64,000 bases of DNA from an uncultured Bacteroidales bacterium (GTDB taxonomy: Bacteria; Bacteroidota; Bacteroidia; Bacteroidales; P3), in contig CAJOEN010000001.1 of the NCBI GenBank assembly GCA_905233475.1, positions 62,413 to 126,412 on the forward strand, read 5' to 3'. A model generated the notes under the pieces. That model saw only the letters and a program-made list of their open reading frames with translations, did no database searches and was not told the origin of the DNA. A program made the translations under genes and the position numbers. This document shows positions 16,287-52,677 of this stretch, one piece after another; the first letter of the stretch is position 1; every line of letters starts with the position of its first letter.

Positions 16287-16403
16287 GAAAAATCCCCCAA
16301 ATACAGGAATGAAAAATCCCCCAAATACAGGAATGAAAATCCCCCAAATACAGGAATGAAAATCCCCCAAATACAGGAATAAAAATCCCCCAAATACAGG
16401 AAT
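16287..16403 (+). repeat. Tandem direct repeat, 5 contiguous copies of a 23-24-bp unit (gaaaaatcccccaaatacaggaat)
   Basis: Read directly from the sequence. Copies are at 16287-16310, 16311-16334, 16335-16357, 16358-16380 and 16381-16403; they differ only in A-run length and one first base. Confidence 0.95.
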
Positions 16404-16440
16404 GAAATAAATTAATTTTGTGTATATCAATATTTTTTCG

Positions 16441-16448
16441 TATTTTTG
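16441..16448 (+). promoter_or_regulatory. -7 promoter box (TAttTTTG)
   Basis: TAnnTTTG match 37 nt upstream of the ATG at 16485 and 38 nt downstream of the tandem repeat array. Confidence 0.45.
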
Positions 16449-16484
16449 CAAAATCAAAAAAAAGACATAAAAAAACGCATAAAA

Positions 16485-17759
16485 ATGGGAGATTATAAGG
16501 AACGAATTTTCGACCAGTTGCTCATACAAAAACTGGAAGGCATGGGTGCGGTATTGGTTGAAGGCCCAAAATGGTGCGGGAAGACCACCACAGCCGAACA
16601 TCAGGCCGCAAGTGTGCTATATATGAACGAGCCTAAACGCCACAAACGCAACCTGCAACTTGCCGACCAAGACCCTCAAGCCTTGCTGCAAGGAGCCACA
16701 CCGCGACTTATCGACGAATGGCAGGAAGCACCCAAACTCTGGGACACCATACGTTTCGAGGTGGATCACCGACAAAAGGACGGGCAATTCATCCTCACAG
16801 GCTCCGCTGTGCCAGCCGACATGAGCGAAGTGCACCACACCGGCATTGGACGCATAGCACGTATGCAAATGCGCACCATGAGTTTGTGGGAATCGGGCGA
16901 CTCTACGGGCAGTATCAGTCTGGTGTCGCTGTTTGCAGGCTCCGCTGGCAATGTAGCCACTATGGACAAGACTTTGCAGGAGGTAGCCTTTCTCATTTGC
17001 CGAGGAGGCTGGCCAAGGGCAGTTCTGCAAAAGCCTTCCATAGCTCTCGAACGTGCCTACGACTACCTTAACGCAATAGTAAACCTCGACATATCGCGTG
17101 TTGATGGCGTTTCTCGCGACCCACAACGCACAATGCGCCTCATGCGTTCCTACTCTCGTTTCCAAGGCGGACAAGTACCCATCGCCAAAATACGTGAGGA
17201 TGTGATAGCCAACGGCGACAGCTCTTTCGATGAAAAAACGATATTCTCTTATCTCAACGCCCTGAAAATGATGTTCGTTATAGAGGATATGCCGTCGTGG
17301 AACCCCAACCTGCGTTCCAAAGCCGCGATACGCACCACCGAAACACGCTATTTCACCGACCCGTCCATTGCCGCCGCCGCTCTCGGCCTCGGGCCAAAGG
17401 ATTTGATGAACGATTTGGAAACCTACGGCCTGCTATTTGAGGCCATGTGCGTAAGAGACCTCCGAATTTATGCACAAGCCATAAATGGTCTCGTGTACCA
17501 TTACCGCGATTCCGACGGTCTCGAATGCGACGCCGTTATACACTTGCGCAACGGCGACTACGGACTTGTAGAAATTAAACTCGGCGGCGACCGCCTTATT
17601 GAAGCGGGTGCCAAAACTCTGCATAAACTGCACAAGAAAATCGACACCGACAAAATGAAAGAGCCCTCGTTTCTTATGGTTTTAGTGGCCAACGGCGATT
17701 TCGCCTACAAACGCCCCGACGGAGTGTGGGTTGTCCCAATCGGAAGCCTGAAGCCGTAA
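16485..17759 (+). CDS. AAA ATPase with DUF4143 / PD-(D/E)xK-like C-terminal domain
   Basis: P-loop GPKWCGKTT and C-terminal ECDAVIHLRNGDYGLVEIKLG (D...ExK nuclease-like motif). The ATG at 16485 (MGDYKERIF) is preferred over the TTG at 16446 in the ORF track. Confidence 0.8.
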   Translation: MGDYKERIFDQLLIQKLEGMGAVLVEGPKWCGKTTTAEHQAASVLYMNEPKRHKRNLQLADQDPQALLQGATPRLIDEWQEAPKLWDTIRFEVDHRQKDGQFILTGSAVPADMSEVHHTGIGRIARMQMRTMSLWESGDSTGSISLVSLFAGSAGNVATMDKTLQEVAFLICRGGWPRAVLQKPSIALERAYDYLNAIVNLDISRVDGVSRDPQRTMRLMRSYSRFQGGQVPIAKIREDVIANGDSSFDEKTIFSYLNALKMMFVIEDMPSWNPNLRSKAAIRTTETRYFTDPSIAAAALGLGPKDLMNDLETYGLLFEAMCVRDLRIYAQAINGLVYHYRDSDGLECDAVIHLRNGDYGLVEIKLGGDRLIEAGAKTLHKLHKKIDTDKMKEPSFLMVLVANGDFAYKRPDGVWVVPIGSLKP

Positions 17760-20775: not shown

Positions 20776-20938
20776 AAAAATCGCACCTTTGCATTTCGAT
20801 ACCTCTCGAACGTAACTACCCCCTTGGCGAGGCAAAACAAAAAATCTCCGAAATAGCGGGACAGATTCTAAATCGCAAGGAATACAGCCGCCTGCGTTTC
20901 ATCCCCGACGTGGATCCGCAGTAAAACGTGCGATTTTT
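20776..20938. repeat. Perfect 11-bp inverted repeat (aaaaatcgcac / gtgcgattttt) enclosing 141 nt
   Basis: Arms at 20776-20786 and 20928-20938, read directly; located at the left edge of the R-M island. Confidence 0.8.
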
Positions 20939-20982
20939 GACTATTTCTTGTGTATTTGCTTGAAAAACAATTGGTTGATAAT

Positions 20983-21180
20983 ATGACCCTCTATACAGAA
21001 TATGAGCTATTTACACGGGAGGTTTATCACCAATTGTCGAACTACAACAATTCAGATATCACAAACTTCAGCACAACATAAAACTAAAAGGCTGCGTGGT
21101 GTTCCATCGGCTCTGCCAACTACGAAGGCCTGCGAACCTTATAAGTGAACTCGTGGCCGCCCCGCTTCACATTTAAGCAG
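20983..21180 (+). pseudogene. Possible decayed fragment of a restriction-endonuclease-like (Mrr/NucS-type N-terminal) gene
   Basis: A 32-codon ORF (MTLYTEYELFTREVYHQLSNYNNSDITNFSTT*) continues after a -1 shift as QHNIKLKG... This resembles the FE..v.eiy..L....v.HNvKL.G block of one endonuclease family. It is truncated and interrupted. Confidence 0.3.
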
Positions 21181-21277: not shown

Positions 21278-22540
21278 TTATTCAGATTCTTCAAAGTCTA
21301 TTCTGTCAATTAGGAACCTAAATGAAGAACTGCCGAAGCACATGTCAATTTCACTCTGGGAAAATCCCAGAAGGTCAAGTATACAGCAGGAAAGGAGTAT
21401 TTTTGCTTTTTGTGTTAGGCGGAAAAGTTCATCACCTCTGACGATTTTCTTTCCTTCATCTTCTTCATCTGGAATAAGGTGAGAGTATTTATGTCTTGTG
21501 TCTGCCATCATTTGGCAATCAATGTGACATTTTCTAACAGACTCCACTTTATCAAAATGATTTATCATCGCTTTTATCTCGTCTTCGTATTTCCGAATAT
21601 CTTTGCCATCCTTCTTATTCAGAAACCTTTTGTGATAGCCATCCAACGCCTGAGCGACAATTAAAAAATCTGGGGCGTCAAATTCGTCATAGTTTATTGA
21701 AGACAAAAGATAGTTGCAAATCTGAGAGATTTGCGGATAAATGCGATGCCAAGTGGTTAGAATTTCTGGTACCTTCTTTTGAAATTTATTAAAAGGAATT
21801 AGTGAAAAACTGTTTGGATTAACAGACATGTCGACTTTATAGAATAACTGACAGAATGAACTTTTGTCATCTTTTATCAACCATATATCAGTAGGCTCCT
21901 GTTTCGAGAAAAGAGCCAATGACAAGAATTGTGAATATTCTGTTATACAGTCAACAAAGAAACTCGGAGAAGACAACGTTGTTGTGGTAAATGACAGATA
22001 TGTCGATTGCGTAATACTCGTATCGTATTTGTCGTGTTTAAACTCAATATGTCTGTATATATGGAGCTTCGTTTTTTCATCTATTTGTGCATCGACAAGA
22101 ACGTGGTCTTGTTTTCGGGAATCCACAACAAAATCGTACACATCTTCTTCCAGCTCGGTTTTCTTCACTTTGGGAATAAAAGCCCAGTTCCGGAGATATG
22201 GATAACTGACGACGCATGTTTTAAACATAGCCTCGTGCCCAGTTTTGATATGCACCCCAACCAATACTGCATGAGCCTTAAAACTTGCCTGAAAGCACTT
22301 GGTTTCTTCAAGCATTTCTAATCCGAACACGGATATCTTACGTCCGTCAGCAACCTCTCCCCATACCACATCATACTTATCACATACTCGAAAAACAGCT
22401 GAGTTTCTTTGGTCATGATAAATCTCCAGTTTTGAAGAGCCATCCTTTTCAACTATTAATGTTCCCATACAGGCGACATCTTTGAATCGCCTTACTCCAT
22501 CCGGAGCCCACCATCTACCATGAAAAACTTGATTAGTCAT
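21278..22540 (-). CDS. ApeA-like HEPN-domain protein (predicted abortive-infection RNase), last gene of the type I R-M operon
   Basis: 420 aa. The N-terminus FHGRWWAPDG...CMGTLIVEKDGSSKLEIY resembles the ApeA N-terminal domain pattern (G.W.p....GtL....g..Lel). C-terminal alpha-helical region carries the Rx4H motif TRHKYSH (R349-H354, nt 21479-21496). The start lies 10 nt after the hsdS stop. Confidence 0.6.
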   Translation of the reverse strand: MTNQVFHGRWWAPDGVRRFKDVACMGTLIVEKDGSSKLEIYHDQRNSAVFRVCDKYDVVWGEVADGRKISVFGLEMLEETKCFQASFKAHAVLVGVHIKTGHEAMFKTCVVSYPYLRNWAFIPKVKKTELEEDVYDFVVDSRKQDHVLVDAQIDEKTKLHIYRHIEFKHDKYDTSITQSTYLSFTTTTLSSPSFFVDCITEYSQFLSLALFSKQEPTDIWLIKDDKSSFCQLFYKVDMSVNPNSFSLIPFNKFQKKVPEILTTWHRIYPQISQICNYLLSSINYDEFDAPDFLIVAQALDGYHKRFLNKKDGKDIRKYEDEIKAMINHFDKVESVRKCHIDCQMMADTRHKYSHLIPDEEDEGKKIVRGDELFRLTQKAKILLSCCILDLLGFSQSEIDMCFGSSSFRFLIDRIDFEESE

Positions 22541-22550
22541 ATATACATTG

Positions 22551-24041
22551 CTACGCTTTTAGTTTGTCTATTTCGTGTATTAGTTTCTCTATCTTCGCCA
22601 CAATGCGACGCTGCTCGGCGAGGGGTGGAAGGGGAAATGGTTTATTCTCTAAATATCCCACAACTATTCTCTGTTGATTAGCAGTACCTTTAAAAATCGC
22701 TTCGTCTATAAAGTACGAGGATTCTAGAAAAAACAACAAATACTTTCTATCAATGGTTTCCGAATATTGTCTTAAAACCTTTAGCTCTGTTGTCCCTGCG
22801 CCAATTCCATCAGGAAGTCCATCTAATATCATTGATTTTCTATTCTGAAAACAAGGTGTGATTTTAGCAAAAGCCACATCACCATCCGCAAAACATGTAA
22901 ACGTTTTTTTTATTTCACCCCATTTCCTGATATCATATGAGAATTGCGAACCATAACACGCTACTATTTTCTCCATTGGAATAAAAGCAGCCAATTGATC
23001 ATCTTTTGCTTCAACCTTAGGATTTATTTTGAATACATCGAACACTCTCACCCACGCCCAACTTTCTGGTATCTCGAATGGAATTTCGTCTTCGGTTATG
23101 GGTTTTACTTCCAGATCTTTTTTCTTGAGTTTGCCTTCTTTCACCAGACGTTGTTTTTCCTCGCGGATGCGTTCCAATAAGGCCGAAGCGGGTTCGTCGG
23201 CTGGGTCTTGCGGGACGAGTTTGCCTTGTATGGCTTCTTGGAGGATGCTCTTTTTGAGTTTTTCGGGCAGGGAGTTGTTCCATTCTTCGAGGGCTTCTTG
23301 TGTTTCGCCGTATTTCTCCACCAAAGGCATCAACTCCTCTATCTTTGCCACTATGCGGTGCTGCTCGGCAAGGGGGGGAAGAGGAACTGGCATCGCTTTT
23401 AGAACCTCAAATGGTGGAATATTCTTTATTGCAGAACCAGATCCCTTAAGTTTATTCTCAACAAGAAGAATATATTGAAAATACAACAGCCAATATGGTA
23501 TTATTGAATCAAGATGTAGTTTGGCTCTCATTAAGGCCTGATTGATAATGCCAATTGGAGCCTCCGACGGCAAAAGATAAGTTTCTCCAATAGTACCAGC
23601 GCAACTAACAATAATGTCACCCGGACGAACGGTAAACCCCGTCATCGCTTCATATTTCTCTTTTGAAATATAATACTCGCCCAAGGAATAATCCTTCTGA
23701 ATAGCATTTTTCTGTTCGTAAACCTTTACTGCTTCATCTGTATTTGGAACAAACATGGATTTAGTAAGACTACTGCCAAAAGGTCCTTTTTTATATTCAC
23801 CAAGCTCTCCCCATCTTACCCATTCCCACCCTTTAGGAATCTCAAAAGGAATCTCGTCTTCGGCAATGGGTTTCACCTCTAGGTCTTTCTTCTTCAGTTT
23901 GCCTTCTTTCACCAGTCTCGCCTTTTCGGCACGAATCTTTTCGAGCAGCACGGAGGCGGGCTCGTCGTTGGGGTCTTGGGGGACAAGTTTGCCTTGTATG
24001 GCCCACTGTAGTATACTGTTTTTTAGTTGTTTTCCGGTCAT
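22551..24041 (-). CDS. hsdS: Type I restriction-modification specificity subunit HsdS
   Basis: 496 aa with two target-recognition halves, each followed by the conserved PLPPLAEQ[HR]RIVAKIE helix (aa 219-243 and 469-493) and each preceded by a ~70-aa K/E-rich linker. Confidence 0.9.
   Translation of the reverse strand: MTGKQLKNSILQWAIQGKLVPQDPNDEPASVLLEKIRAEKARLVKEGKLKKKDLEVKPIAEDEIPFEIPKGWEWVRWGELGEYKKGPFGSSLTKSMFVPNTDEAVKVYEQKNAIQKDYSLGEYYISKEKYEAMTGFTVRPGDIIVSCAGTIGETYLLPSEAPIGIINQALMRAKLHLDSIIPYWLLYFQYILLVENKLKGSGSAIKNIPPFEVLKAMPVPLPPLAEQHRIVAKIEELMPLVEKYGETQEALEEWNNSLPEKLKKSILQEAIQGKLVPQDPADEPASALLERIREEKQRLVKEGKLKKKDLEVKPITEDEIPFEIPESWAWVRVFDVFKINPKVEAKDDQLAAFIPMEKIVACYGSQFSYDIRKWGEIKKTFTCFADGDVAFAKITPCFQNRKSMILDGLPDGIGAGTTELKVLRQYSETIDRKYLLFFLESSYFIDEAIFKGTANQQRIVVGYLENKPFPLPPLAEQRRIVAKIEKLIHEIDKLKA
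23046..23255 (-). repeat. Intragenic direct repeat copy 2 in hsdS (encodes aa 263-332)
   Basis: Encodes KSILQEAIQGKLVPQDPADEPASALLERIREEKQRLVKEGKLKKKDLEVKPITEDEIPFEIPESWAWVR. About three quarters of nucleotides match copy 1 by eye; the longest exact runs are about 17-20 nt. Confidence 0.85.
23814..24023 (-). repeat. Intragenic direct repeat copy 1 in hsdS (encodes aa 7-76)
   Basis: Encodes KNSILQWAIQGKLVPQDPNDEPASVLLEKIRAEKARLVKEGKLKKKDLEVKPIAEDEIPFEIPKGWEWVR. Confidence 0.85.
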
Positions 24042-24044
24042 TGT

Positions 24045-24920
24045 TTAATCCTCCTGCTCGTAATAGTATGAATAGTCAATGCCTTTCATAAAGATTTCGC
24101 GGTCGTCAATCTTGTCAGTCAACGCTCCTTTGAGCAGTTCTCGGATGCGGCTGCTGTCGGTATGGCTGGCTATCATCGCATCGAGGTAGTCTTTCTTGTC
24201 TATCCGGCTCCAATCCACACACACCTTCATCCGTTTCTTGAATATCAAGTCGAGCCAGATGCGTGTCGAGCGGCCGTTGCCCTCCATGAAAGGATGGGCG
24301 GCGTTCATCTCCACATATTTGTCCACAATTTCATCGAATGTCGTTTCCGGCATCGCCTCGACTGTTTTCAGATAGCTGTGCAGATGCTCCGCCAGACAAA
24401 ACAGCGTGTTGCCCTTGGCTATCGTCTTTGTGCGTATCTTGCCGGCAAAGTCGTAAAGGCCGCCGAACAGATAGGCGTGAATCTGCTGCAACGACTTCAC
24501 TTTTCCCACATCATTACTGGCCACAAGGTTGCTTTCCCAGAGGGTGTAGGCTTTCTTGCGGCTCTGCCCGTCGATAGTGTTGTCGCTGTAGGTAAACCAG
24601 TCGAGGAATGCACTTGCTCGGTTGTTTGGATAGTGTTTCGCCAATGTCTGCACACATTCGGTGTCCAGTGCATCGGCAGCATGGCGTTTGCCGTCGGGGG
24701 CAACAAATTTGAACTGGTTAGTGACACTAACCAGTTGGATACCGTCTTTGGCCATCTTGCCCTTCAAGTATTTCCAATAGTTGCGGGATTTAGCATAGTC
24801 CTCTTCATCGTTGATGGCCTGCACAATATCGGTTGCCGAGAACCACCACTTGCTATTTTCCTCGTCCCATACGGCTCGCACCTTATGGTCTTTATAAAAA
24901 CGGATAGATGTCTTGCTCAT
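24045..24920 (-). CDS. Bro-N-like DNA-binding domain fused to a Fic/DOC domain protein
   Basis: 291 aa. The N-terminus IRFYKDHKVRAVWDEENSKWWFSATDIVQAI fits the Bro-N/KilA-N-like pattern. Canonical Fic motif HPFMEGNGRSTR at aa 209-220 (nt 24261-24296). The start overlaps the hsdM stop (ATGA at 24917-24920). Confidence 0.85.
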   Translation of the reverse strand: MSKTSIRFYKDHKVRAVWDEENSKWWFSATDIVQAINDEEDYAKSRNYWKYLKGKMAKDGIQLVSVTNQFKFVAPDGKRHAADALDTECVQTLAKHYPNNRASAFLDWFTYSDNTIDGQSRKKAYTLWESNLVASNDVGKVKSLQQIHAYLFGGLYDFAGKIRTKTIAKGNTLFCLAEHLHSYLKTVEAMPETTFDEIVDKYVEMNAAHPFMEGNGRSTRIWLDLIFKKRMKVCVDWSRIDKKDYLDAMIASHTDSSRIRELLKGALTDKIDDREIFMKGIDYSYYYEQED

Positions 24921-26443
24921 AGCGCCTCCCCGTTTATTTCAATTCCCAATATCCGCTCTATCTCGGCCAACGTGCGGTCAATCTCGTGGTCGAGGGCGGC
25001 GCGTTTCTTATAGTAGTCGGCCAGTAGCTCGGCAGGCGGCAGGATTTCTTCCTCGTCCTTGGGGAACTTGCACTGGTCGAAGTTGCAGTCCATATCGAGC
25101 AGCTGCTGAGCGGTGAAGCAGCGCGACTTTTCGTCTGTGATATTACCGTCATTGTCTTTTGTGAAGATTTCCTTGCGGTCGGTCCACCAGTCGCGGATAG
25201 GCTGACAGTGCTCCACGCGCATAGGTTTGGTCTTGCTGAAATGCTTGTAGCCTTCGGGCATGTCCAAACGATAGAACCAAGTTTTGTTGGTGCTGAATCC
25301 CTCTTGCGCGCCCTCGGCTTTCTCGTTGTTGAAGAAAAGTATATTGGTGGCAATGCTGGTGTAGGGCGAGAAGATGCTGCCGGGCAAACGGATGATGGTG
25401 TGCAGGTTGAACTCACGCAAGAGTTTTTCCTTGATGGCCAGCTTGGCGTTGTCAGTGCCAAACAGGAATCCGTCGGGCAGGATAACTGCAGCGCGACCTT
25501 TCCTGGCCAGACGATACATGATGACCACCATAAAAAGGTCGGCGGTTTCGCTCGAGGCGAGGTCGGCCGGGAAATGGCGTTTCACCTCGTTTTTCTCGTT
25601 GCCGCCGTAGGGGGGATTCATCAGGATGACGTCAAACTTGTCATCGTCGGTATAGTTCAGCACATCCTTGGTGAGCGAGTTGTCGTGCATCACCTTGGGC
25701 GAATCGATGTCGTGCAGCAGCATATTGGTAACGCACAACATGTAGGGAAACTGCTTCTTTTCTATGCCGAATATAGAGCGGGCGTAGGCTTCGCGGTCCT
25801 CGGCTGTCTTCACTTTCTTGTCGAGCTCTTTCAGCCACGAGGTGATGAAACCGCCCGTGCCACAGGCAAAGTCGGCCATCGTCTCGCCAATCTGTGGATT
25901 GACAATCTCGGCCATGAAATCGGTAAGGGCACGAGGAGTGTAGAACTCACCAGCCGAGCCGGCAGACTGCATCTCTTTAAGAATCGATTCGTAAATCTCG
26001 CCGAAAGCATGACTTTCTTCGTAGTTACTCAAATCCAATTCATCAATCACATTCAGCACCTGACGGAGCAAAACACCGTCTTTCATATATTGGTTGGCAT
26101 CCTGGAAGGTGGCACGCACTATGGCGCTTCGCATCGGAGTATTAGGGTTAACCTCAAGATTTTTCAACGTGGGGAATAGCGTGTTGTTGACGAAATCAAG
26201 CAGTTTGTCGGCTGTCAGCGCTTTTCCGTCGCCGCTGTCCTTAGCCCAATTGCGCCAGCGGCAGTTTTCAGGGATGAAAGATACATAGTTGTCCTCGTTG
26301 AATTCCCAGTCGTTCTCTTTCTCGTCGTAAACTTTCAAAAACAGCATCCAAGTAATCTGCTCAATGCGCTGGGCGTCGCCGTTGATGCCCGCATCGTTGC
26401 GCATTATGTTGCGGATGCTTTTTACAAAATTTGTAAGAGCCAT
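24917..26443 (-). CDS. hsdM: Type I restriction-modification N6-adenine DNA methyltransferase subunit HsdM
   Basis: 508 aa with an HsdM_N block (GDAQRIEQITWMLFLK), SAM-binding DFACGTGGF and catalytic NPPYGG. Confidence 0.9.
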   Translation of the reverse strand: MALTNFVKSIRNIMRNDAGINGDAQRIEQITWMLFLKVYDEKENDWEFNEDNYVSFIPENCRWRNWAKDSGDGKALTADKLLDFVNNTLFPTLKNLEVNPNTPMRSAIVRATFQDANQYMKDGVLLRQVLNVIDELDLSNYEESHAFGEIYESILKEMQSAGSAGEFYTPRALTDFMAEIVNPQIGETMADFACGTGGFITSWLKELDKKVKTAEDREAYARSIFGIEKKQFPYMLCVTNMLLHDIDSPKVMHDNSLTKDVLNYTDDDKFDVILMNPPYGGNEKNEVKRHFPADLASSETADLFMVVIMYRLARKGRAAVILPDGFLFGTDNAKLAIKEKLLREFNLHTIIRLPGSIFSPYTSIATNILFFNNEKAEGAQEGFSTNKTWFYRLDMPEGYKHFSKTKPMRVEHCQPIRDWWTDRKEIFTKDNDGNITDEKSRCFTAQQLLDMDCNFDQCKFPKDEEEILPPAELLADYYKKRAALDHEIDRTLAEIERILGIEINGEAL

Positions 26444-26481
26444 AGGTAATTGAACAATGATAGTTTATTATAAAAGGTTGT

Positions 26482-28839
26482 TTATGCGATATTTGTATAA
26501 ATTAATGTTTCCAGTTCTTTCACTGCGTCGAGATACTGTTTGTTGCCGCCAAACATTTTGGCAATGTTGGCTGGAGAGCCCATCTTTCGAAATGGGTCGA
26601 GGCTTAGCACCTTGCGGTTTTCCAATTGACTGATACCTTCATTCATATATTTGTCGAGCAGGGCGTCGAGCACCTTCTGGGCCTTTGGTCCGTATTTACT
26701 GAAAATGTCACGTTTTTTCACATTCTCCGCACGTTCGCGACGTGTGAGGGGTTTCTTGCCGTAGGCGATATGGCAGATAAAATCAAAATCGTCAACATCG
26801 GCCATGCCTTGGTCTTCCTTCAAAGCCTGCAGGTCAATACCATTATCAAGCAGCAAATCCGTGATTTCGGCTTTCTTTTCGGCGGCATTCCATTGTTGTA
26901 TAAAATCGTCAAAGTTGGCGTATGTTTCGTTGATGTTCTTCTTGGTATAGTCGGTGATGCTTTCGGTGCGGAGCAGCTTTCCGTCGGAATCGTAAACCGA
27001 CACTACCCTTTTTATTATTTCCACCCTGCAACCGTTGCGGTCAACGATGGGTTTTGGTTCTGCCACAGATGTTGTTTCGGCTGGGTCGGTGGGATAAGGT
27101 TTGGGGCTATTGTTGTCGTGTTCGTTTTCTTTACCATAACCGTCATCCACCTCGATAGGTCCATCCCAATCGGGATCGGCAAACAGGCGAGTGATGTTGC
27201 GGAAATCCATAATGAAGAAGTGTGTCTTCCCTTCTTTTTCACGGATACGCGTACCTCGGCCTATAATCTGCTTGAACTCCGTCATGGAGTTGATGTTTTG
27301 GTCGAGCACTATGAGCTTCACCATTTTGCAGTCCACACCAGTGGAGAGCAGTTTGCTTGTTGTGGCGATGACAGGATATTCTGATGAAACGGAGATGAAA
27401 TAGTCAAGTTTGCTTTTCCCATATTCGTCGGTACCAGTGATGCGCACAACGTAATCGGGATTTTTCTTGCACATATCCGAGTTTTCGTTGACCAATGCCA
27501 CTCTCATTCTTTCAGCATGGTCTTCGTTGGCGCAGAAAACAATGGTTTTGTTCATTCTGCCCGTTTGTTTCAGATAGGCAGTTATTTCGTGTGCTACCTC
27601 ACGTATGCGGTCTTCAATGATTATATTGTAGTCGTAGTCGGTATTGTTATAAATGCGGTCTTCGATAAGATTTCCAAAGATGTCGCGCTGTCCTTTGGTA
27701 GGTCGCCATTCATCGCCGATGTTGGTTTTGATGTTTATTACCTTATATGGTGCCAAAAAACCATCGTCGATACCCTGTTTCAAACTATATGAATATAGGG
27801 GTTCGCCAAAATAGGTGATATTAGACTGGTAGCGTGTTTCCTTAGGAGTTGCAGTCATACCAAGTTGGATAGCTCCTTCGAAATATTCGAGTATTTCACG
27901 CCAGTTGCTGTCGTCCTTTGCACTGCCACGATGGCACTCATCAACAATCACCATATCGAAGAATTCCGGTTTGAAAAGCTCCTTGTAATTCTGCTTACCA
28001 CCTTCGCCGATAAGTTGCTGGTAAAGAGAGAAATATATTTCGTGGGCGGTAGTTTTGGAATCTTTGTCATGCTGGTAGTTGACCTTATGGATAACATTGG
28101 CGAGAGGTTTGAAATCCTGCTCAATAGATTGATCGACCAACACATTTCTATCAGCAAGGTAGAGTACCTTTTTAATTATATCGGCCTTTAGCAGACGATA
28201 CACGATTTGAAAAGCTGTATATGTCTTTCCCGTGCCAGTAGCCATTACGAGCAGCATGCGCTTCTGACCACGAGCTACCGCATCCACAGTTCGGTTGACG
28301 GCATTGCGCTGGTAATAACGCGGCGGAAAGATGTCTTGTCCGGAGCAAAAAGGTTGATTTATCACCTTCAATTCATCGTCGGTAAAGCCTTTGCCTTCGT
28401 TGCTTTCTGCAAGAAAACGTGCATATAATTCTTTTTTTGTAGGAAACTGATCCATGGCAAAAGATCGTTCTTTACCCGTGAGAAAGTCGTATTCCTGAAA
28501 ACCAAATCCGTTGGAACTAAAAGCAAAAGGTATGTCCATCATCGAGGCATACTCCTTGGCCTGTTGCATACCATAACTAACCGAATGATTGGCATCCTTG
28601 GCTTCCACAATGGCAATGGGCGTAGCTGGATTGTAATACAACATATAGTCGGCAAATTTCGGCTTTTCACGAACCACAAAATTGCCTTTGATATTTACTT
28701 TGCCGTCGGTAAGTTTTATTTTTGTCTCCATCGTGATATCCGTCACCAACCACCCCTTATTCTGAATAGCAGGGGTGATGTATCGCAGTTTTATGTCTTC
28801 TTCCGACAACTGTTTGTTTTGTAAAGTGATTTTTGTCAT
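26482..28839 (-). CDS. hsdR: Type I restriction enzyme endonuclease/helicase subunit HsdR (short, EcoEI-like form)
   Basis: 785 aa with an N-terminal HSDR_N block (EEDIKLRYITPAI), Walker A MATGTGKT, DEAH box VDECHRGS and helicase C motifs (TEFKQIIGRGTR). Confidence 0.9.
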   Translation of the reverse strand: MTKITLQNKQLSEEDIKLRYITPAIQNKGWLVTDITMETKIKLTDGKVNIKGNFVVREKPKFADYMLYYNPATPIAIVEAKDANHSVSYGMQQAKEYASMMDIPFAFSSNGFGFQEYDFLTGKERSFAMDQFPTKKELYARFLAESNEGKGFTDDELKVINQPFCSGQDIFPPRYYQRNAVNRTVDAVARGQKRMLLVMATGTGKTYTAFQIVYRLLKADIIKKVLYLADRNVLVDQSIEQDFKPLANVIHKVNYQHDKDSKTTAHEIYFSLYQQLIGEGGKQNYKELFKPEFFDMVIVDECHRGSAKDDSNWREILEYFEGAIQLGMTATPKETRYQSNITYFGEPLYSYSLKQGIDDGFLAPYKVINIKTNIGDEWRPTKGQRDIFGNLIEDRIYNNTDYDYNIIIEDRIREVAHEITAYLKQTGRMNKTIVFCANEDHAERMRVALVNENSDMCKKNPDYVVRITGTDEYGKSKLDYFISVSSEYPVIATTSKLLSTGVDCKMVKLIVLDQNINSMTEFKQIIGRGTRIREKEGKTHFFIMDFRNITRLFADPDWDGPIEVDDGYGKENEHDNNSPKPYPTDPAETTSVAEPKPIVDRNGCRVEIIKRVVSVYDSDGKLLRTESITDYTKKNINETYANFDDFIQQWNAAEKKAEITDLLLDNGIDLQALKEDQGMADVDDFDFICHIAYGKKPLTRRERAENVKKRDIFSKYGPKAQKVLDALLDKYMNEGISQLENRKVLSLDPFRKMGSPANIAKMFGGNKQYLDAVKELETLIYTNIA

Positions 28840-28898: not shown

Positions 28899-28906
28899 CA
28901 AAAATA
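28899..28906 (-). promoter_or_regulatory. -7 promoter box (TAttTTTG on minus strand) for the hsd operon
   Basis: Reverse complement of caaaaata, 60 nt upstream of the hsdR ATG; the only such box I see for the five-gene block. Confidence 0.45.
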
Positions 28907-29037
28907 CGAACTTTTATGGAATTTTCAAAGTTTTTTTGGAAAAAATCTTTTACTCAACTTTTTACATAACTTATCACTTTTTCACAAAAAAATCGATTCC
29001 GAATTCATAATTCCGAAATCCGAATTAAAAAAAATCG

Positions 29038-29045
29038 TATCTTTG
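29038..29045 (+). promoter_or_regulatory. -7 promoter box (TAtcTTTG)
   Basis: TAnnTTTG match 26 nt upstream of the ettA ATG. Confidence 0.5.
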
Positions 29046-29070
29046 CACTTTCAACAAAAACCAAAATCTC

Positions 29071-30749
<1,679 letters not shown>

Positions 30750-30750
<1 letters not shown>

Positions 30751-31406
30751 TGAAACGGCTTGCACTGATTTTTGCCGCTTTATTGCTGAGTATAAACACA
30801 TTGTCAGCACAAAGCCTCGACTATGTAAAAATCAAGGCTTTCGTGGATATGAATATCGACGCTTTTCCAAAAAGCACTTTGCAGGACATATACAAAAGTT
30901 TTTATCAGGCGGTGTACGGACCGGAACACCTTGTTACCGATTCCGCCAAGGTCATAGCCTATATCGAAGAAGAACTGAAACAGGATTTCGACAACAAATT
31001 CCCCACGGTGCAGTATCTGGGCATTTCGGACAAATTTGTCAGGGTAAACCTCGACATAATAGGGGCCGAAGAAACACGCATTTCCACAGAAATGCTTGCC
31101 GACTGTTTTATGCGGTCGTCGCAAACAAAGGGCGACATGCCTATCGAGGAATTTCGCTCGCAGTGGAGGCTGGTGGTGGATTATATCATAAGCAGCGACA
31201 TACAGCTCGACAATTTCAGTCAGGACTCGCTTTATATCGAAAGCATCCTTGCCCAAGGCCAATACGTGTGGGTGCACTCGCCGCAGTACAAGGCCGAGTA
31301 CAAGCCGCACTACCGCGTTGTTACAAAAGAAATTTTCGAACAAGTGATATTTCCAGAGCTCCGTGCCTTTTCAAGAGTAAGGCCCCGTCCGGCGAACGCC
31401 TTTTAG
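30750..31406 (+). CDS. Secreted protein of unknown function
   Basis: 218 aa starting MKRLALIFAALLLSINTLSAQS. The ATG overlaps the ettA stop (TAATG). The longer ORF in the track (from 30165) is an out-of-frame overlap with ettA. Confidence 0.6.
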
Positions 31407-32286: not shown

Positions 32287-33612
32287 TTATAAAAATGGCG
32301 TGAAATATACCGGCAGACATTTGGTTTGTCCATCTGTCTGATAATCTTTGGTGTATATCAAATATCTGTCATTGATGCGTGACGAGTATTTCTGACAAAA
32401 GGCATCCAACGACTTGTGCGTTTTATAGCCCGAGGATTTCACTTCGATAGGACAAAGCTTGTTGCCACGCGACAACAAAAAATCCACCTCGTAATTGTGG
32501 TTGCTCTCAGTTGGGAATGTATGATAGAACAATTCATTACCCGTACTTTTCAGCATCTGTGCAACCAAATTTTCGTAGATGTATCCCAAATTGGCTTCAA
32601 GCTTGTCGCTCAACAACTTGCTATAGATTGTGTTTTCGGTAAATGCTTTGTCGCGAAAAGCAAGGGTGATAAAAAGGCCTGTGTCGGCGACAAACATTTT
32701 GTAACGGTAAATGTTTTGCGACAGAGGCATACCCACATTCGGGTCATTGATATGGTAGGCCAATAGTATTGTCATACTGTCAGCCATATCTGCAACCACG
32801 CTTGCTACACGTTGCGCATCTTGATTTTCCAAAACACTTGAGATCTGGTATCTGCCAGAATTGTTTGTAAGTTGCGAAGGTATGGCGGCAAACAATTGTG
32901 AAGCTCTGCCTGTATTGTCAATTTTGTTGAAGTCGTCTTGATACAGCTCTATTATTTCTCTTTTAATGTCGTCAACTGCCTGCAAATTATTTGTTTGCAG
33001 ATATGCGTCGATAGATTGCGGCATACCGCCGACAAGCATATACAAACGTAAGTCACGCATTATTTTGCGATGCGAGCTCCCCAATGGCTGTCGTAATTCC
33101 CGGAACTTATGCAGCGTATCGAATGTGGTGGTGTTGCCCAAAGCCCAATAAAACTCCTCGAAGTCCATTGGATATAATGTAAGACGGGTTTCTTCGGATG
33201 GGATAACAATATCTTTCACATTCTTTTTAATGCTTAATAGCGAACCTGTTTCGATATAGTCGTATCGTCCGTCTTTCACCAAGTATTTAATGGCTTGTCG
33301 CGCAATAGGTTTGAGTTGTATTTCATCGAATATTATGACGGATTCTCGCTTATATAGTTTTACCCCGGTTTCTACCTCAAGACGCATAAAAAATAAGTCC
33401 AAGTCGCTAATATCATCAAAAAGTTCGTTTACCTTTTTGGAAACATTTGCAAAATCGATTAGGATATATGATTTGTATTCGTTTTTCGCAAATTGAAGAG
33501 CCAAAGTGGACTTGCCCACTCTCCTTGCCCCTTTTATCAGCAAAGCCGTAGTGCCTTTGCGCTCTCTTTTCCATTTGAGCATCTGCTCATATAATTTCCT
33601 CTTGAAAACCAT
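32287..33612 (-). CDS. AAA ATPase with DUF4143 / PD-(D/E)xK-like C-terminal domain (second, divergent paralogue)
   Basis: 441 aa with P-loop GARRVGKST, Walker B IIFDEIQ and C-terminal YEVDFLLSRGNKLCPIEVKSS (D...ExK). Confidence 0.8.
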   Translation of the reverse strand: MVFKRKLYEQMLKWKRERKGTTALLIKGARRVGKSTLALQFAKNEYKSYILIDFANVSKKVNELFDDISDLDLFFMRLEVETGVKLYKRESVIIFDEIQLKPIARQAIKYLVKDGRYDYIETGSLLSIKKNVKDIVIPSEETRLTLYPMDFEEFYWALGNTTTFDTLHKFRELRQPLGSSHRKIMRDLRLYMLVGGMPQSIDAYLQTNNLQAVDDIKREIIELYQDDFNKIDNTGRASQLFAAIPSQLTNNSGRYQISSVLENQDAQRVASVVADMADSMTILLAYHINDPNVGMPLSQNIYRYKMFVADTGLFITLAFRDKAFTENTIYSKLLSDKLEANLGYIYENLVAQMLKSTGNELFYHTFPTESNHNYEVDFLLSRGNKLCPIEVKSSGYKTHKSLDAFCQKYSSRINDRYLIYTKDYQTDGQTKCLPVYFTPFL

Positions 33613-33656: not shown

Positions 33657-33768
33657 GTATCCGCAAAATTTATTTCCACAAAAATGCGTAAATCCGCAAA
33701 AAGTTTTTTCGCAAAAATGCGTAAATCCGCAAAATTTATTTATATAAAAATGCGTAAATCCGCAAAAT
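33657..33768. repeat. Spaced direct repeats: 3 full copies plus 1 partial copy of aaaaatgcgtaaatccgcaaaa, period about 32-37 bp
   Basis: Read directly. Full copies start near 33680, 33713 and 33746; a degenerate copy gtatccgcaaaa is at 33657-33668. Confidence 0.85.
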
Positions 33769-33815
33769 GTAACAGTTCAACATATCATCAATTCAACAAT
33801 TAAACAAAAAAAACG

Positions 33816-34418: not shown

Positions 34419-34814
34419 CTACAACAGAGATTTTGTTGTGTCCATAAAAACACGTGCGGCAAGCATTACACCATCCAAATCTTCTTTGCAAAAATCAAAC
34501 ATATCGCCATAGTCGCTTTTTGTACGCCAGTTTAGCAATTTGGAGTAAACTCTGAAAGTGTCTGCCGACATCTGGCCTGTGCGCACAACACTCTCCGAAA
34601 ATTTGGCGAGAACGCCCGTATGCGACTTGGCCCCGTAGCCTCGGTCCAACAACAATGCCGAAGCGACATAAAAACAAGCATAATACAGTCTGTTCACAGC
34701 CGAATTCCACTGTTCCGCTTCGTACAATATCTCAGAGGCACGATACACCTCCTCGGCCTTTTCAAAACGGTAGTTTACGAATTCTCTTACATCCGGTTGT
34801 TCCATCGTCTTCAA
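34419..34814 (-). CDS. HEPN-domain toxin of a HEPN/MNT (type VII-like) toxin-antitoxin pair
   Basis: 131 aa, all-helical, HEPN-type motif region NWRTKSDYGD. The start overlaps the stop of the upstream nucleotidyltransferase gene (ATGA at 34811-34814). Confidence 0.75.
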   Translation of the reverse strand: MKTMEQPDVREFVNYRFEKAEEVYRASEILYEAEQWNSAVNRLYYACFYVASALLLDRGYGAKSHTGVLAKFSESVVRTGQMSADTFRVYSKLLNWRTKSDYGDMFDFCKEDLDGVMLAARVFMDTTKSLL

Positions 34815-35125
34815 ATTTTAATCGCTTCGCGGATTACATTTTGGTAAAATGGCGTTATGCTGTGCCGGCCATGCCAGTCTGTTTTGCCGTATGCAAAAAG
34901 ATGTATTACCTGACCGCTCTCTATAATCAGGTCGGTCATGTGGTCGATAAAAAGGCTCTCCTCTGTTACGGAAAGTGAATTTCTGGGAGACAAAACCAGA
35001 ATATCCCAATCGGACTCCTCGTTAGCGGTGCCTCGAGCCCTTGAGCCGTAAAGCCACACTTCGGCATAAGGGTCAACCTCATGCACATTGGCTTTAATCC
35101 GTTCTTTCATGTCCAATTCTGTCAT
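34811..35125 (-). CDS. Minimal nucleotidyltransferase (MNT) antitoxin
   Basis: 104 aa with the pol-beta NTase signature GSRARGTANEESDWDILV. Confidence 0.85.
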   Translation of the reverse strand: MTELDMKERIKANVHEVDPYAEVWLYGSRARGTANEESDWDILVLSPRNSLSVTEESLFIDHMTDLIIESGQVIHLFAYGKTDWHGRHSITPFYQNVIREAIKI

Positions 35126-35149
35126 AATTCATCCCATTTTTTCGTTTTG

Positions 35150-35157
35150 CAAAAATA
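35150..35157 (-). promoter_or_regulatory. -7 promoter box (TAttTTTG on minus strand)
   Basis: Reverse complement of caaaaata, 25 nt upstream of the MNT ATG. Confidence 0.45.
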
Positions 35158-35208
35158 TGTTTTTTCCCTGAAATAACAAAATAATATCTCATAATGCGAA
35201 AATTTCCG

Positions 35209-43589: not shown

Positions 43590-46500
43590 TTATTTGAATG
43601 AGTTCAAATCAACGGGACGCATTGTGCCAAACCATTTGATAACCCTTTCGCCTATGCCCGGTACCGATACATGTATCAGATACATACCACCTGCGATAGG
43701 TATTCCTATATGGTTTTTCAAATCCCAATCAAGAGTGTAGCCTCTGTCGGCATTGCCCGCGTCGGTTGGCGATGGTCCCAATTTACGTACCAAAGTTCCG
43801 TCAACTGTGTAGATGGAGATTTTTGAGTTGGCCGGCAGATTTACAATTCTAACCCTGCTATCCAACTGGCTCGAAGTCTCGTATTCCGAAGAGCTGTAGT
43901 AGGGGTTGGGGACAACAGTGATATTGTCAAGCAATGTCTGTTTGTCCATACGGCCTCCTGCTTGGTTGGTAAGGGTAATCAAATCGTCGGTCATTTCGAA
44001 CATATACATGGGGTTGTTGGCGTTCTGCAATGTCTTGCCCACTTGTGAAGGAGCTGTTTGGTTAGGACTGTAGTACATGGAATACGGACGTCTAACCGAA
44101 ATGTCGATGGTTACATCGCAAGGTATGTCCTTAGGATTGTCGAACATAAACTTGGAGGATACCATAGGCATGCTTACCCAAGCCACACTTGAGAAGAGCA
44201 GAGCCGCAGAGTCACGTGCCGGACGTACATATTGGTCGTTTTCGCCAAGAAGCAGGCCACCGCAGTATGCCATGTAGGAAGAATTGTCTTTTATGTTCAT
44301 CAGACGGTCTAAGGATTCGAGCATACGTGCAGCCCAAACACCGCCATCATACGAAGGTGTCTTGTAGTATCGAGCTACTATATTATCCGAGTTTCTCGAA
44401 ATGTCGATGAAAGGTTGGTTGTTGGATTTAAGGATATAAATGAAGTGGCCACCACCCATAACGTAGTTCTGGGTTCCGTCCATAAGCGTGCTTACCGGAT
44501 TCCACATCATATCTCTACCGTTGTGCTGTACATAACGAGAGTCTTCACCAAACATGATATTCAGACGTTCGCCAGTCTCCACATCAATTGCATAGCCCGG
44601 GAACCAGCCCATACCATATTTTCTGTCGTATGTGGTGTCGATATTACCATTCTTATCAACAGAATAGGCTTTTCTCATTTGGAAACGCAAAGCATTGCCT
44701 TCAGACTGTGTCGGGTCATCGCACATTTCCAAAACAGGACAGCGAGTCCATTTCGACTGGTCGGCAGTAATAACTATGTGTACACTTGGAGTGTTGGCAA
44801 GGTCATTGTAGTTCAAAGATTTGTTATGGTACTGAACTTGAAGTTTTCTTCTCAGATAGTTACGTGATTTGTAAAGCATAGCCAAAGGAGCCGAACGTTT
44901 GCGCAACGAATCGAAACGGCTTTCGGGAGCCACGTAATACATAAAGGAGAATCCCGGATGATACTGTCTTGTGGAAACCAAACCGTAAGGAGCCCAAAGT
45001 CCGCCCAAAACATTTTCAAATACACTGTATTTGTCTATGGCAAAACTTTCGGGACGGCCAAGAACCAACTCCTGATATTTGTAATAGTCTCCGTCAAGAT
45101 AAGGTTCGTTTCCGGTGAAATCACTTGTGTCGCCACCACCAGCGAAAGCGGCCCTGTCGCCCTCTGTGAACTGAGCACCTGATCTTATCCAATTGTAAAC
45201 AGGCGAAGCGTCATAGTCGGGAATACCAGAAAGCCATTGCTTGTAGGGATCGGCAAACGACATTGTCGATGACAGCAGAGCGTCTTTATTAACGATACCG
45301 CCAAGGATATTTCTACCATTCAGTACAACCTCGTTAGCAACAGGAGCTACATTGGTTATACCAACAGCAATACCCAAATCAAGGAAGAGTTGTTCGTTAA
45401 AACGACCTATTGTAAAGTCGGAAGTGTCCACGTAAACAGGATTTCCGGAACCGTCTGTGTATATGGGTTCGCCATCCACACGCGATATTGTCCAACGAGC
45501 GTCGTCGCCAACACCATTGAAACGGATGTAGAATTTACCCGGTTTAACATTCAGAGGATCAACAATAGTTACATTGAGCGGACCGTGATTTTCCTTGTAT
45601 GTCGGGTTGGGGATTATACAGGGATCTTCCATTCTCTCGTTCATACCGGAGCGAACAAATTTTCCTGCAGGTTTACCCTCTTCGCCTTTGGCACCCATGA
45701 GCTCCTCAATCGAAGCGTCGGTAAGTTGCAGTGTTATACCGCCATTGCCGTAACCTTCGATACGGGTTATAACAGGTGAAGTGCCGTAGCTAGCTTGTAT
45801 AATGGTACCGCCATTTTCAGCAGAAACAATGTGAGGTATGGCCTTAACAGGTTTTATCTCCTGCTTCCATTCGTTCTGACGACCAGCAAGATACGGGGTC
45901 TTCTGTCCGTCCAGTTTGGAAGCGTCGGATGGAGAGTATTCTTTATAGCGGTTGTGAGCGTAAGCTATCGCAACAAAATAATATTCCTTGTTGTTTACAA
46001 GTTTTGTATTTGTTCCGTTTGCAAACGCGTCAGTTGCAATTCTTATAGAGTGTCTGATACCGGTATTGGAACCCGTTACCATAACTTTCGGTGCAATTGA
46101 ACCTATGGCATTGTCTCTCTCGTAATTTACCAATGTACCAATAGGCAGGGTTTTGTCGGCATCATAATAGTTTTCTATATCGCACTGATAAACCAAACGA
46201 GCTTTTGTATCGTCGCCTATGTCGGCTACAGAAGCGTTGGCATCTCTCAGCTGATAAACCTGATAACCTTCGAATTTGTAAGTTCTCTGCTCTGTTGTAT
46301 AGGTTCTAATTTCAGTAACAGCCGAACCATTTATTATGGTATCATGAGAATAAGTTGTCGGAATTGAGGGATCAATTTCGGCAAAGGATTCGGGAATTCC
46401 GTTTTTATTGTTGTTGGATTCGGTGTTCTCGTATGAAAGATAGAGTATTACCTCGTTGGAGAGTTCCTGAACAGTAACTGTAGGAGCCTCGGGGCCAGAC

Positions 46501-48419: not shown

Positions 48420-48435
48420 TTTATATACCTATACC

Positions 48436-52089: not shown

Positions 52090-52126
52090 CTAATTTACAT
52101 TTAAATAACCTATCTATTTTTCTTTA

Positions 52127-52561
52127 TTATCTACTTTTTTCCCAAGCTATATAGGGATTTTCCAATACTACAGAATACACAACTGCTTCCCTCAAATTGA
52201 ACTCCACTTTTCGTGTGTCCTCAATATCGGATTGCAGTATGGCTGTTTCAGCAACAGGTTCCTGTTTTTTGGGTTCCTCCTCAACAATTTTGGGATTATA
52301 TTCATTATACAAAAACTGTTCTCTCTCTCTGACGGTTGTTTTTTTATCAAACTCCCGCACCTCTTCTTCGGCTGAAGAGAACATTTTTTTTCCGAGTATT
52401 TCATGTAGAGTTTCTTCTATATCGGTGTAAACTGTGGAACCGGAAGTTTTTTTATCCGATTCCGCAACTTTACGTTCTCTCCTACCATTTTTTTCTTTTT
52501 TACCCAAAAGACTTGGTAAAGAGAACAACACCAATAATAATATCCACAAAAAATTACTCAT
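52127..52561 (-). CDS. Small membrane-anchored Glu/Lys-rich protein of unknown function
   Basis: 144 aa with an N-terminal hydrophobic helix; 37 nt upstream of the receptor-like gene on the same strand. Confidence 0.45.
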   Translation of the reverse strand: MSNFLWILLLVLFSLPSLLGKKEKNGRRERKVAESDKKTSGSTVYTDIEETLHEILGKKMFSSAEEEVREFDKKTTVREREQFLYNEYNPKIVEEEPKKQEPVAETAILQSDIEDTRKVEFNLREAVVYSVVLENPYIAWEKSR

Positions 52562-52677
52562 TTACTATCCTAAAATTCTGTGCAAAAATACTCAATCTAT
52601 ATGAATAATAAGTATAAAAAATGTTATTTTTTACAATCTTTCAATCCGACAGATTGATTATCAACGCCTTACTTTCT

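Follow-up and report, generated by a model that had tools for sequence, protein, structure and literature searches.

Gene content and organization of the locus

The type I restriction-modification (R-M) operon described here lies in a 64,000-nucleotide window, the whole stretch of DNA analysed, from an uncultured gut or rumen Bacteroidales bacterium (GCA_905233475.1, contig CAJOEN010000001.1, positions 62,413-126,412). The operon consists of five intact open reading frames (ORFs) on the minus strand, all in one direction: hsdR, hsdM, a gene for a Bro-N/Fic protein, hsdS and a gene for an ApeA-like HEPN protein (Table 1). The locus is best explained as an acquired defence island, in which an EcoAI-family (type IB) operon at a priA/ettA hotspot carries two independently mobile cargo genes, fic and apeA. 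The spacers within the operon are short: 38 nucleotides between hsdR and hsdM, 3 between fic and hsdS and 10 between hsdS and apeA, and hsdM and fic overlap by four nucleotides (ATGA). The coordinates, spacers and common direction of the five genes had been given in an initial annotation of this DNA, and all were reproduced from the ORF list. Use of an alternative hsdM start at Met14, the choice of the gene caller in an identical metagenome contig (L003), widens the hsdR-hsdM spacer to 77 nucleotides. The same five-gene locus, located between ettA and DUF805, is present in two further metagenome assemblies. L-numbers denote the loci of relatives, from genomes and metagenomes, that were used for comparison. 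As far as annotation goes the locus is an ordinary one; tools of the PADLOC type already flag each gene, and hidden Markov model (HMM) searches supported the domain assignments made initially, with the exception that Bro-N scores below the Pfam cutoff in this protein.

Table 1. Features of the operon and of the left edge of the insertion site, in window positions.
Feature	Position	Strand	Description
priA 3' remnant (last 42 codons, 20793-20918) and downstream spacer	20793..20979	+	Ancestral left edge of the insertion site
Mrr-like restriction endonuclease 5' remnant	20983..21091	+	32 codons, then stop; convergent with apeA
ApeA-like HEPN gene (apeA)	21278..22540	-	420 residues; cargo after hsdS; Pfam ApeA_NTD1, HEPN_Apea; PADLOC PDC-S58
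HEPN Rx4H motif RHKYSH	21479..21496	-	Residues 349-354; R349 and H354 invariant in alignment
hsdS	22551..24041	-	496 residues; two target-recognition domains and two conserved regions; Pfam Methylase_S x2; PADLOC Specificity_I
Bro-N/Fic gene (fic)	24045..24920	-	291 residues; cargo in hsdM-hsdS position; class III (NmFic-like) AMP-transferase with N-terminal Bro-N-like domain
C-terminal inhibitory-helix motif SYYYE	24057..24071	-	Residues 284-288; aligned to NmFic SYYYE
Fic active-site motif HPFMEGNGRSTR	24261..24296	-	Residues 209-220; aligned to NmFic motif
hsdM	24917..26443	-	508 residues (495 from Met14); N6-adenine methyltransferase subunit; Pfam N6_Mtase, HsdM_N
hsdR	26482..28839	-	785 residues; EcoAI-family (type IB) restriction subunit; NCBIfam restrict_EcoAI; Pfam ResIII, EcoEI_R_C, HSDR_N_2
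Candidate Bacteroidetes-type promoter	28899..28930	-	TTTG, 19 nucleotides, TATTTTTG (-7 box 28899-28906); 5' of hsdR; consensus match alone

HsdR scores 1083.6 bits against the NCBIfam model restrict_EcoAI (EcoAI/FtnUII equivalog; cutoff 550), with residues 11-781 aligned to positions 1-767 of 768. Its Walker A sequence, GTGKT (residues 202-206), is as annotated initially; the helicase box is of the DExH type, but it reads DECH (300-303) and not the literal DEAH given at that time. HsdM contains the Pfam domains N6_Mtase (E 4.6e-64) and HsdM_N and matches PADLOC MTase_I over its full length. HsdS aligns over residues 1-495 with positions 1-487 of 488 of PADLOC Specificity_I and matches Pfam Methylase_S in two stretches. 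The NPPYGG of HsdM (276-281) and the doubled PLPPLAEQxRIVAKIE of HsdS (220-235 and 470-485) were found as first described. A direct repeat of 218 nucleotides lies within hsdS (23046-23263 and 23814-24031). The EcoAI/type IB assignment rests on the family of HsdR, its helicase motifs and EcoEI_R_C, on the HsdM domains with NPPY and on the two-domain layout of HsdS. HsdM2S is predicted to methylate host DNA at specific sequences, and HsdR2M2S to cut incoming unmethylated DNA in an ATP-dependent manner.

Transcription signals and base composition

Between 21278 and 28906 the minus strand contains one match to TAnnTTTG, TATTTTTG at 28899-28906, which is the single box reported in the initial annotation, and a TTTG lies 19 nucleotides upstream of it. 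The shuffle rate gives a chance expectation of about three such matches over the operon. The earlier claim that the genes form an operon is backed by this one promoter box and by the tight or overlapping junctions. The five genes are predicted to be read from one transcript that starts at the box upstream of hsdR and so to be co-expressed. Terminator-like hairpins are not enriched in the operon, with 11 found compared to 9.1 +/- 2.6 in shuffled sequence, in agreement with the initial view that it has no internal hairpin terminator. Two weak hairpins, within fic and apeA, were considered as internal terminators and rejected, the total count being no higher than in shuffled sequence. Rfam and tRNA scans revealed no family and no tRNA in or near the locus.

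The base composition of the operon is mosaic. GC content is 38% in apeA, 42% in hsdS, 42% in DUF805 and 57% in ettA; thus, the distal part, described initially as more AT-rich than its flanks, is so relative to ettA but not relative to DUF805. GC content at third codon positions (GC3) is 0.69 in hsdM, 0.65 in fic, 0.50 in hsdR, 0.39 in hsdS and 0.37 in apeA, with 0.74 in ettA. Within hsdS, GC3 is near 0.6 in the conserved regions and near 0.3 in the recognition domains. The same GC3 pattern is seen in L163, L151 and L139.

Acquisition of the island and exchange of its cargo

Relatives with nearly identical EttA record other states of the same chromosomal site. In L165-L169 (EttA 98% identical; GCA_017443265.1 is among them), priA directly adjoins ettA and the site is empty. 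In L163/L164 (EttA 99% identical), the interval from priA to ettA contains AbiH, hsdS, Y1 transposase, hsdM and hsdR genes on the minus strand and three more genes. The encoded HsdM shares 88% identity, and the encoded HsdR 80%, with its counterpart in the window; Y1_Tnp occupies the position of Fic, and AbiH that of ApeA. The three states (empty, Y1_Tnp/AbiH cargo, Fic/ApeA cargo) therefore indicate a backbone that was acquired and that offers two positions for exchangeable cargo. A metagenome locus, L151, encodes HsdR and HsdM of 81% and 84% identity; in it the place of Fic is taken by an Abi_2-like HEPN gene, and the ApeA that follows hsdS is 38% identical. The horizontal acquisition proposed initially is supported by the empty site and by the occurrence of the same backbone with other cargo. 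An empty DUF805/ettA junction had been suggested initially as a check, and the empty junction found in relatives is that of priA and ettA.

The boundaries of the cargo genes are sharp. Backbone homology to L163 breaks at 24936 and 24052, which are nearly the exact ends of fic. The DNA homology of fic to 13 other loci ends at the ORF ends, as does the homology of apeA to its relatives. No flanking site common to the relatives was found at the cassette boundaries, where homology stops at start and stop codons, and no inverted or direct repeats were found that bound the island. Carriage by phages or plasmids was rejected as the main route for the cargo genes. Fic matches in phage records are partial only, the best covering 61% of the protein; ApeA matches in plasmid records are distant only, with 22-30% identity; and IMG/VR yielded three ApeA loci and one Fic locus.

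The gene debris noted initially at the edge of the operon is real and consists of two remnants, a PriA C-terminal one (20793-20918) and an Mrr-like 5' one. The priA remnant is 79% identical by tblastn to residues 786-827 of the PriA of L165 and 91% identical by blastn to positions 193-373 of L163. The Mrr-like remnant matches, by blastn and tblastx, the start of a 253-residue ORF that follows an ApeA homologue in L088 and has a hit to Pfam Mrr_cat. Synteny with L163 and L165 is restricted to the priA 3' remnant (20793-20979) and to ettA with the next gene, of 222 residues (29028-31385), and intact priA is absent from the window. The limited synteny implies either that rearrangement has affected both flanks of the island in this lineage or that the block was relocated.

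The ApeA-like HEPN protein

ApeA_NTD1 (91.7 bits; cutoff 25.5) is followed in this protein by HEPN_Apea (47.5 bits; cutoff 24.4), and both the arginine and the histidine of its Rx4H motif are invariant across an alignment of 31 sequences with identities down to 34%. It thus has the three features by which Pfam defines the ApeA family, namely ApeA_NTD1, HEPN_Apea and a conserved Rx4-6H motif, and the initial assignment as an ApeA-like HEPN protein holds. The statement that the protein has no PrrC-type ATPase head was also correct; an HMM scan detected no ATPase domain, and the N-terminal part is ApeA_NTD1. Among PADLOC models, the protein matches PDC-S58 (PDLC05046; E 8.4e-30) and Cas13-ApeA, and no model named ApeA is among its matches. 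The AlphaFold2 (AF2) model, with a pLDDT of 84, consists of a beta-rich N-terminal domain and a helical C-terminal domain. Sequence searches of the PDB with the protein and its profile returned nothing relevant, and a PDB fold search with the AF2 model returned only meaningless barrel matches, with TM scores of about 0.1.

ApeA (Gao et al. 2020) is a validated defence family. The protein shares with Ec1ApeA and Ec2ApeA the Pfam architecture and the invariant Rx4H motif, but it belongs to a divergent Bacteroidales clade. ApeA homologues are oligomeric HEPN RNases that are activated via a pocket outside the active site, that cut tRNA anticodon loops or phage RNA and that protect when expressed alone (bioRxiv 10.64898/2026.01.26.701840, 10.64898/2026.03.20.713152). 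Activation of Ec2ApeA by deoxydinucleotides has been reported. Whereas a doughnut-shaped oligomer, a ligand pocket, tRNA anticodon cleavage and phage protection are on record for validated ApeA, the present clade is known from sequence and the AF2 model.

The Bro-N/Fic protein

The second cargo protein matches Pfam Fic and scores 250.9 bits against the NCBIfam NmFic equivalog NF046029 (cutoff 230). Its active site, HPFMEGNGRSTR, fits HxFx(D/E)GNGRxxR, and with these matches the initial Fic assignment is upheld. Residues 114-288 align without gaps to residues 9-183 of NmFic, including the active site and the inhibitory SYYYE, and the Fic domains are about 55% identical (estimated by eye from the alignment). 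The inhibitory helix of class III Fic proteins carries the motif [S/T]xxxE[G/N]. The corresponding region here reads SYYYEQ (284-289); it retains the Ser, the Glu and the Tyr that aligns with NmFic Y183, but it ends in Q where G or N is expected. The protein also differs from NmFic in an additional N-terminal domain and in the placement of its gene inside an R-M operon.

The additional domain, the first 110 residues, resembles Bro-N. The Pfam Bro-N model (PF02498) gives 18.1-20.6 bits with this protein, under the cutoff of 25.6, but it is matched at E<=0.01 by the N-terminal domains of 70 of 79 orthologous Fic proteins (best 1.5e-08). The Bro-N label of the initial annotation is below threshold for the protein itself, although most of its orthologues match the model. 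The protein matches PADLOC PDC-S04 (model PDLC04841) over its full length with an E value of 2.6e-157. It is not a member of SoFic by PADLOC, whose SoFic HMM matches the Fic core only (E 0.0046, 14.4 bits). NmFic keeps itself inactive through its own helix, in which the Glu prevents ATP from binding, and its AMPylation target is GyrB; the roles of the inhibitory Glu and of Tyr183 have been reviewed (PMC12894286). AMPylation of GyrB Tyr109 by the present Fic protein would be an extrapolation from NmFic (PMC12894286).

The part of fic that encodes the Bro-N-like domain contains a perfect palindrome with an 11-bp stem, AACTGGTTAGTGTCACTAACCAGTT (24712-24736), and its counterpart in L014 also gives a match in the reverse orientation. 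The palindrome could be due to chance, or it could be a regulatory or recombination element.

Proposed mode of action of the cargo genes

It is somewhat more probable than not, at roughly 0.55, that the two toxins are co-transcribed but self-sensing modules, whose link to the R-M system is one of co-transcription and co-inheritance and not of physical control. The single transcript would then give rise to a defence in three layers: restriction of DNA, a toxin directed at RNA and a toxin that modifies proteins, with a separate sensor in each toxin. By analogy with characterised homologues, the ApeA-like protein would be a HEPN RNase that stays latent until its own N-terminal domain, serving as the sensor, is triggered during infection; it would then cleave RNA, putatively in tRNA anticodon loops, and stop translation. 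The Bro-N/Fic protein would be an auto-inhibited AMP-transferase of the NmFic type that, on release, probably AMPylates GyrB/ParE and halts DNA replication. The autonomy of the cassettes is suggested because cargo homology ends exactly at start and stop codons and because relatives occur in diverse contexts. Several points weigh against self-sensing modules. The ApeA clade is associated with type I operons far beyond simple island co-location, and its many overlapping or abutting junctions with hsdS hint at a functional tie. PDC-S04, the family of the Fic protein, was without measurable defence in the sole native-host test on record (bioRxiv 10.1101/2024.12.20.629700). Finally, the targets proposed for both toxins are extrapolated from homologues.

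The association of ApeA with hsdS was quantified among its relatives. Homologues numbered 398 at E<=1e-5, and a profile search at E<=0.001 yielded 3586 sequences, each of which represents a 50%-identity cluster. Gene context was surveyed in 80 metagenome loci, and near-identical copies were then collapsed to 40 assessable clusters. In the 80 loci the gene next to ApeA upstream encodes HsdS in 28 of 66 cases; the one next to it downstream encodes HsdR in about 12 of 65, GmrSD in six and another Fic type in six. After de-duplication, hsdS is directly upstream of ApeA in 26 of the 40 clusters, and the HEPN gene is a conserved neighbour of hsd genes, in support of the initial reading. In most of these junctions, at least 22, the stop and start codons overlap or abut, with many overlaps of 1-8 nucleotides. 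About 12 ApeA relatives lie between hsdS and hsdR, which is the position of prrC. Recurrence of the gene order had been suggested as a check; the order hsdM-fic-hsdS-apeA-hsdR was found once, in L139, and nowhere else in the loci examined are Fic and ApeA together. L139 carries a different type I family (HsdM 27% identity to the window), and its Fic and ApeA are 65% and 37% identical to those described here.

These associations are compatible with a guard like that of PrrC, in which the HsdMS(R) complex binds and silences the ApeA-like RNase, and perhaps the Fic protein, until a phage anti-restriction protein frees the toxin and causes abortive infection. The 26 of 40 clusters, the prrC position, the overlapping codons and the recurrence of the order with a different type I family all favour such a guard. 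Moreover, PrrC and ApeA both have a nuclease domain of the HEPN type, and cleavage of anticodon loops has been reported for ApeA (PMC3710099; bioRxiv 10.64898/2026.01.26.701840). However, the ABC-ATPase domain was not detected in the ApeA-like protein. The position of ApeA is not fixed either; the gene is found after hsdS, hsdM or hsdR, beside GmrSD or AbiH, or by itself on an element with an integrase gene, and about a third of the clusters are not directly downstream of hsdS. An abundant human-gut relative (a cluster of 376 sequences; L103-L110, L174-L178) resides on such an element with no adjacent R-M genes. Characterised ApeAs function without an R-M system, via their own ligand pocket (bioRxiv 10.64898/2026.01.26.701840), and about 85% of Fic relatives lie outside type I operons. 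A guard is on these grounds unlikely, and it retains appreciable weight, mainly for ApeA, because the ApeA-hsdS association is strong and tight.

A related proposal is that the Bacteroidales ApeA-like clade (PDC-S58) is a second family of HEPN RNases coupled to R-M systems, of independent origin and without an ATPase domain, translationally coupled to hsdS and either silenced by HsdMS(R) or activated by DNA-breakdown products formed after restriction. The idea of activation by breakdown products is drawn from analogy with Ec2ApeA and its deoxydinucleotides. This proposal is speculative and unlikely.

Two groups of ApeA relatives have further genes nearby. In L103-L110 and L174-L178, the human-gut ApeA is always followed by a gene of 583-587 residues for which precomputed annotation gives no family; six downstream neighbours in which a batch Pfam scan detected a Fic domain are probably copies of this gene. 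In L179/L180, the ApeA homologue P0139 follows hsdR in an hsdM-hsdS-integrase-hsdS'-hsdR operon that is probably phase-variable. Just downstream lie genes for a HipA-type toxin and an HTH protein, followed by one that resembles gyrB (HATPase_c/DNA_gyraseB/Toprim).

The relatives of the Fic protein present a different picture. The family comprises at least 8000 proteins at E<=1e-10, with 82-100% identity among the 120 best matches listed. Context was surveyed at species level in the best 79 loci of 576 relatives from a genome scan, these 79 being all from gut or rumen Bacteroidales. A type I operon surrounds Fic in about 12 of the 79, in the hsdM-hsdS or hsdS-hsdR position, and the settings of the remaining relatives are highly diverse. 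Fic is thus not a conserved partner of hsd genes and is mainly a stand-alone gene. The ApeA gene is absent from all 79 loci. Some of the type I operons hold two or three embedded genes (L017, L040 and L065), for example in the order hsdM-c8-hsdS-Fic-hsdR; by Pfam counts the recurrent neighbour clusters in these three loci, c5 and c8, are probably RhuM-like and other Fic-type proteins.

It is conceivable, if improbable, that the Fic gene has no defensive role here and is an NmFic-type regulator of growth or topology, or a selfish hitch-hiker in a permissive slot, so that only the R-M system and ApeA act against phage. Most Fic relatives lie outside defence operons, and some adjoin housekeeping genes for a tRNA synthetase, peptidase M3, S1 or glutamine synthetase. 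The Y1 transposase in the same slot of L163 means that the slot tolerates non-defence cargo. The native-host result for PDC-S04 points the same way, as does the score as an equivalog of NmFic, which is described as a growth regulator (PMC12894286). On the other hand, the relatives are clearly enriched near R-M genes (type I, type ISP, other methylases, Vsr), RhuM, other Fic genes and AAA_14/DUF4143 genes. The embedded copies are also tightly coupled to hsd genes, and Bro-N domains typically occur in phage-related proteins. SoFic is a precedent for defence by a Fic-domain protein, and the match to it here is weak.

Type I R-M systems, Fic/Doc and HEPN toxins are classic stabilisers of mobile DNA, and the present island is mobile and mosaic. 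One or both toxins might for this reason be addiction modules that stabilise the island through post-segregational killing and do not act on phages. Nevertheless, no antitoxin gene lies beside either toxin in the ORF list, the Fic protein bears its own inhibitory helix and there is direct anti-phage evidence for the ApeA family (bioRxiv 10.64898/2026.01.26.701840, 10.64898/2026.03.20.713152). Addiction is accordingly very improbable.

Genes farther from the operon

Two AAA_14/DUF4143 ATPase genes flank the island, at 16446-17759 (+) and 32287-33612 (-), and tandem repeats lie directly upstream of both. A 23-nucleotide unit, AAAATCCCCCAAATACAGGAATG, is present in about five copies before the first (16289-16427), and a 33-nucleotide unit is present in three to four copies before the second (33659-33770). 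The two genes were rejected as recombination partners, since their proteins are only 21% identical. According to the gene table of L001, an identical contig, a nucleotidyltransferase/HEPN pair (Pfam NTP_transf_2/Polbeta, HEPN) is located on the minus strand at about 34457-35163, about 4 kb past ettA. This pair and the two ATPase genes suggest a wider defence-rich neighbourhood. Three very long co-directional ORFs of 1609, 1217 and 1026 residues occupy 43590-55758 on the minus strand.

Relationship to known systems and significance

One of the closest known systems is EcoprrI-PrrC, a type IC system in which a HEPN RNase gene likewise belongs to an hsdM/hsdS/hsdR operon. Here the RNase gene starts 10 nucleotides after hsdS and is predicted to be co-transcribed, relatives often occupy the prrC slot, and the anticodon-loop target has been reported for ApeA homologues. 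Nevertheless, absence of the ATPase domain means that this is not a PrrC system; the N-terminal domain is the beta-rich ApeA_NTD1 in place of the ABC-ATPase of PrrC. In addition, the R-M system is of type IB with the order R-M-(Fic)-S-ApeA, and ApeA relatives also occur without adjacent R-M genes. Masking by the R-M complex is known for PrrC, whereas the likeness here is at the level of genes.

The initial annotation inferred a layered defence from this operon. That logic is not new, as a three-level defence of R-M, HEPN and Doc/RhuM was proposed by Anantharaman et al. in 2013, and ApeA embedded in R-M operons of epsilonproteobacteria was described in the same paper (PMC3710099). For Fic, the inference is weakened by the contexts of its relatives. 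Like the neighbourhoods of R-M with RloC/PrrC-like HEPN and Doc/RhuM proteins (PMC3710099), the present operon combines DNA-, RNA- and protein-level (Fic/Doc) modules. It differs in its HEPN partner, which is ApeA in place of an ABC-HEPN protein, in its Fic partner, a fusion of Bro-N to a class III Fic of the NmFic type, and in its host, a member of the Bacteroidales. A gene's location inside a BREX, DISARM or type I R-M system was the basis on which the PDC candidates of PADLOC were chosen ("guilt-by-embedding"; Payne et al., bioRxiv 10.1101/2024.01.29.577857). The Fic protein matches PDC-S04 from end to end and the HEPN protein matches PDC-S58, but PDC status is a prediction, and both in one operon are uncommon, with one further case in about 160 loci. 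The concept is therefore not new; combined R-M/HEPN/Fic defence has been proposed, both cargo families are PADLOC candidates and ApeA is a validated defence family. The additions made here are modest: a type IB operon is shown to combine Bro-N/Fic with ApeA, one site is documented in three states, and the association of ApeA with hsdS in Bacteroidales is quantified.

The locus presents type I R-M operons as carriers with fixed slots for exchangeable toxin genes, with three states of one chromosomal site captured. It also draws attention to an ApeA clade most of whose members accompany type I operons, often in the slot of prrC, a link that the recent papers on the mechanism of Ec1ApeA and Ec2ApeA do not address. 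If the clade is indeed coupled to R-M, the R-M system and the RNase would constitute one sensing circuit and not two independent layers.

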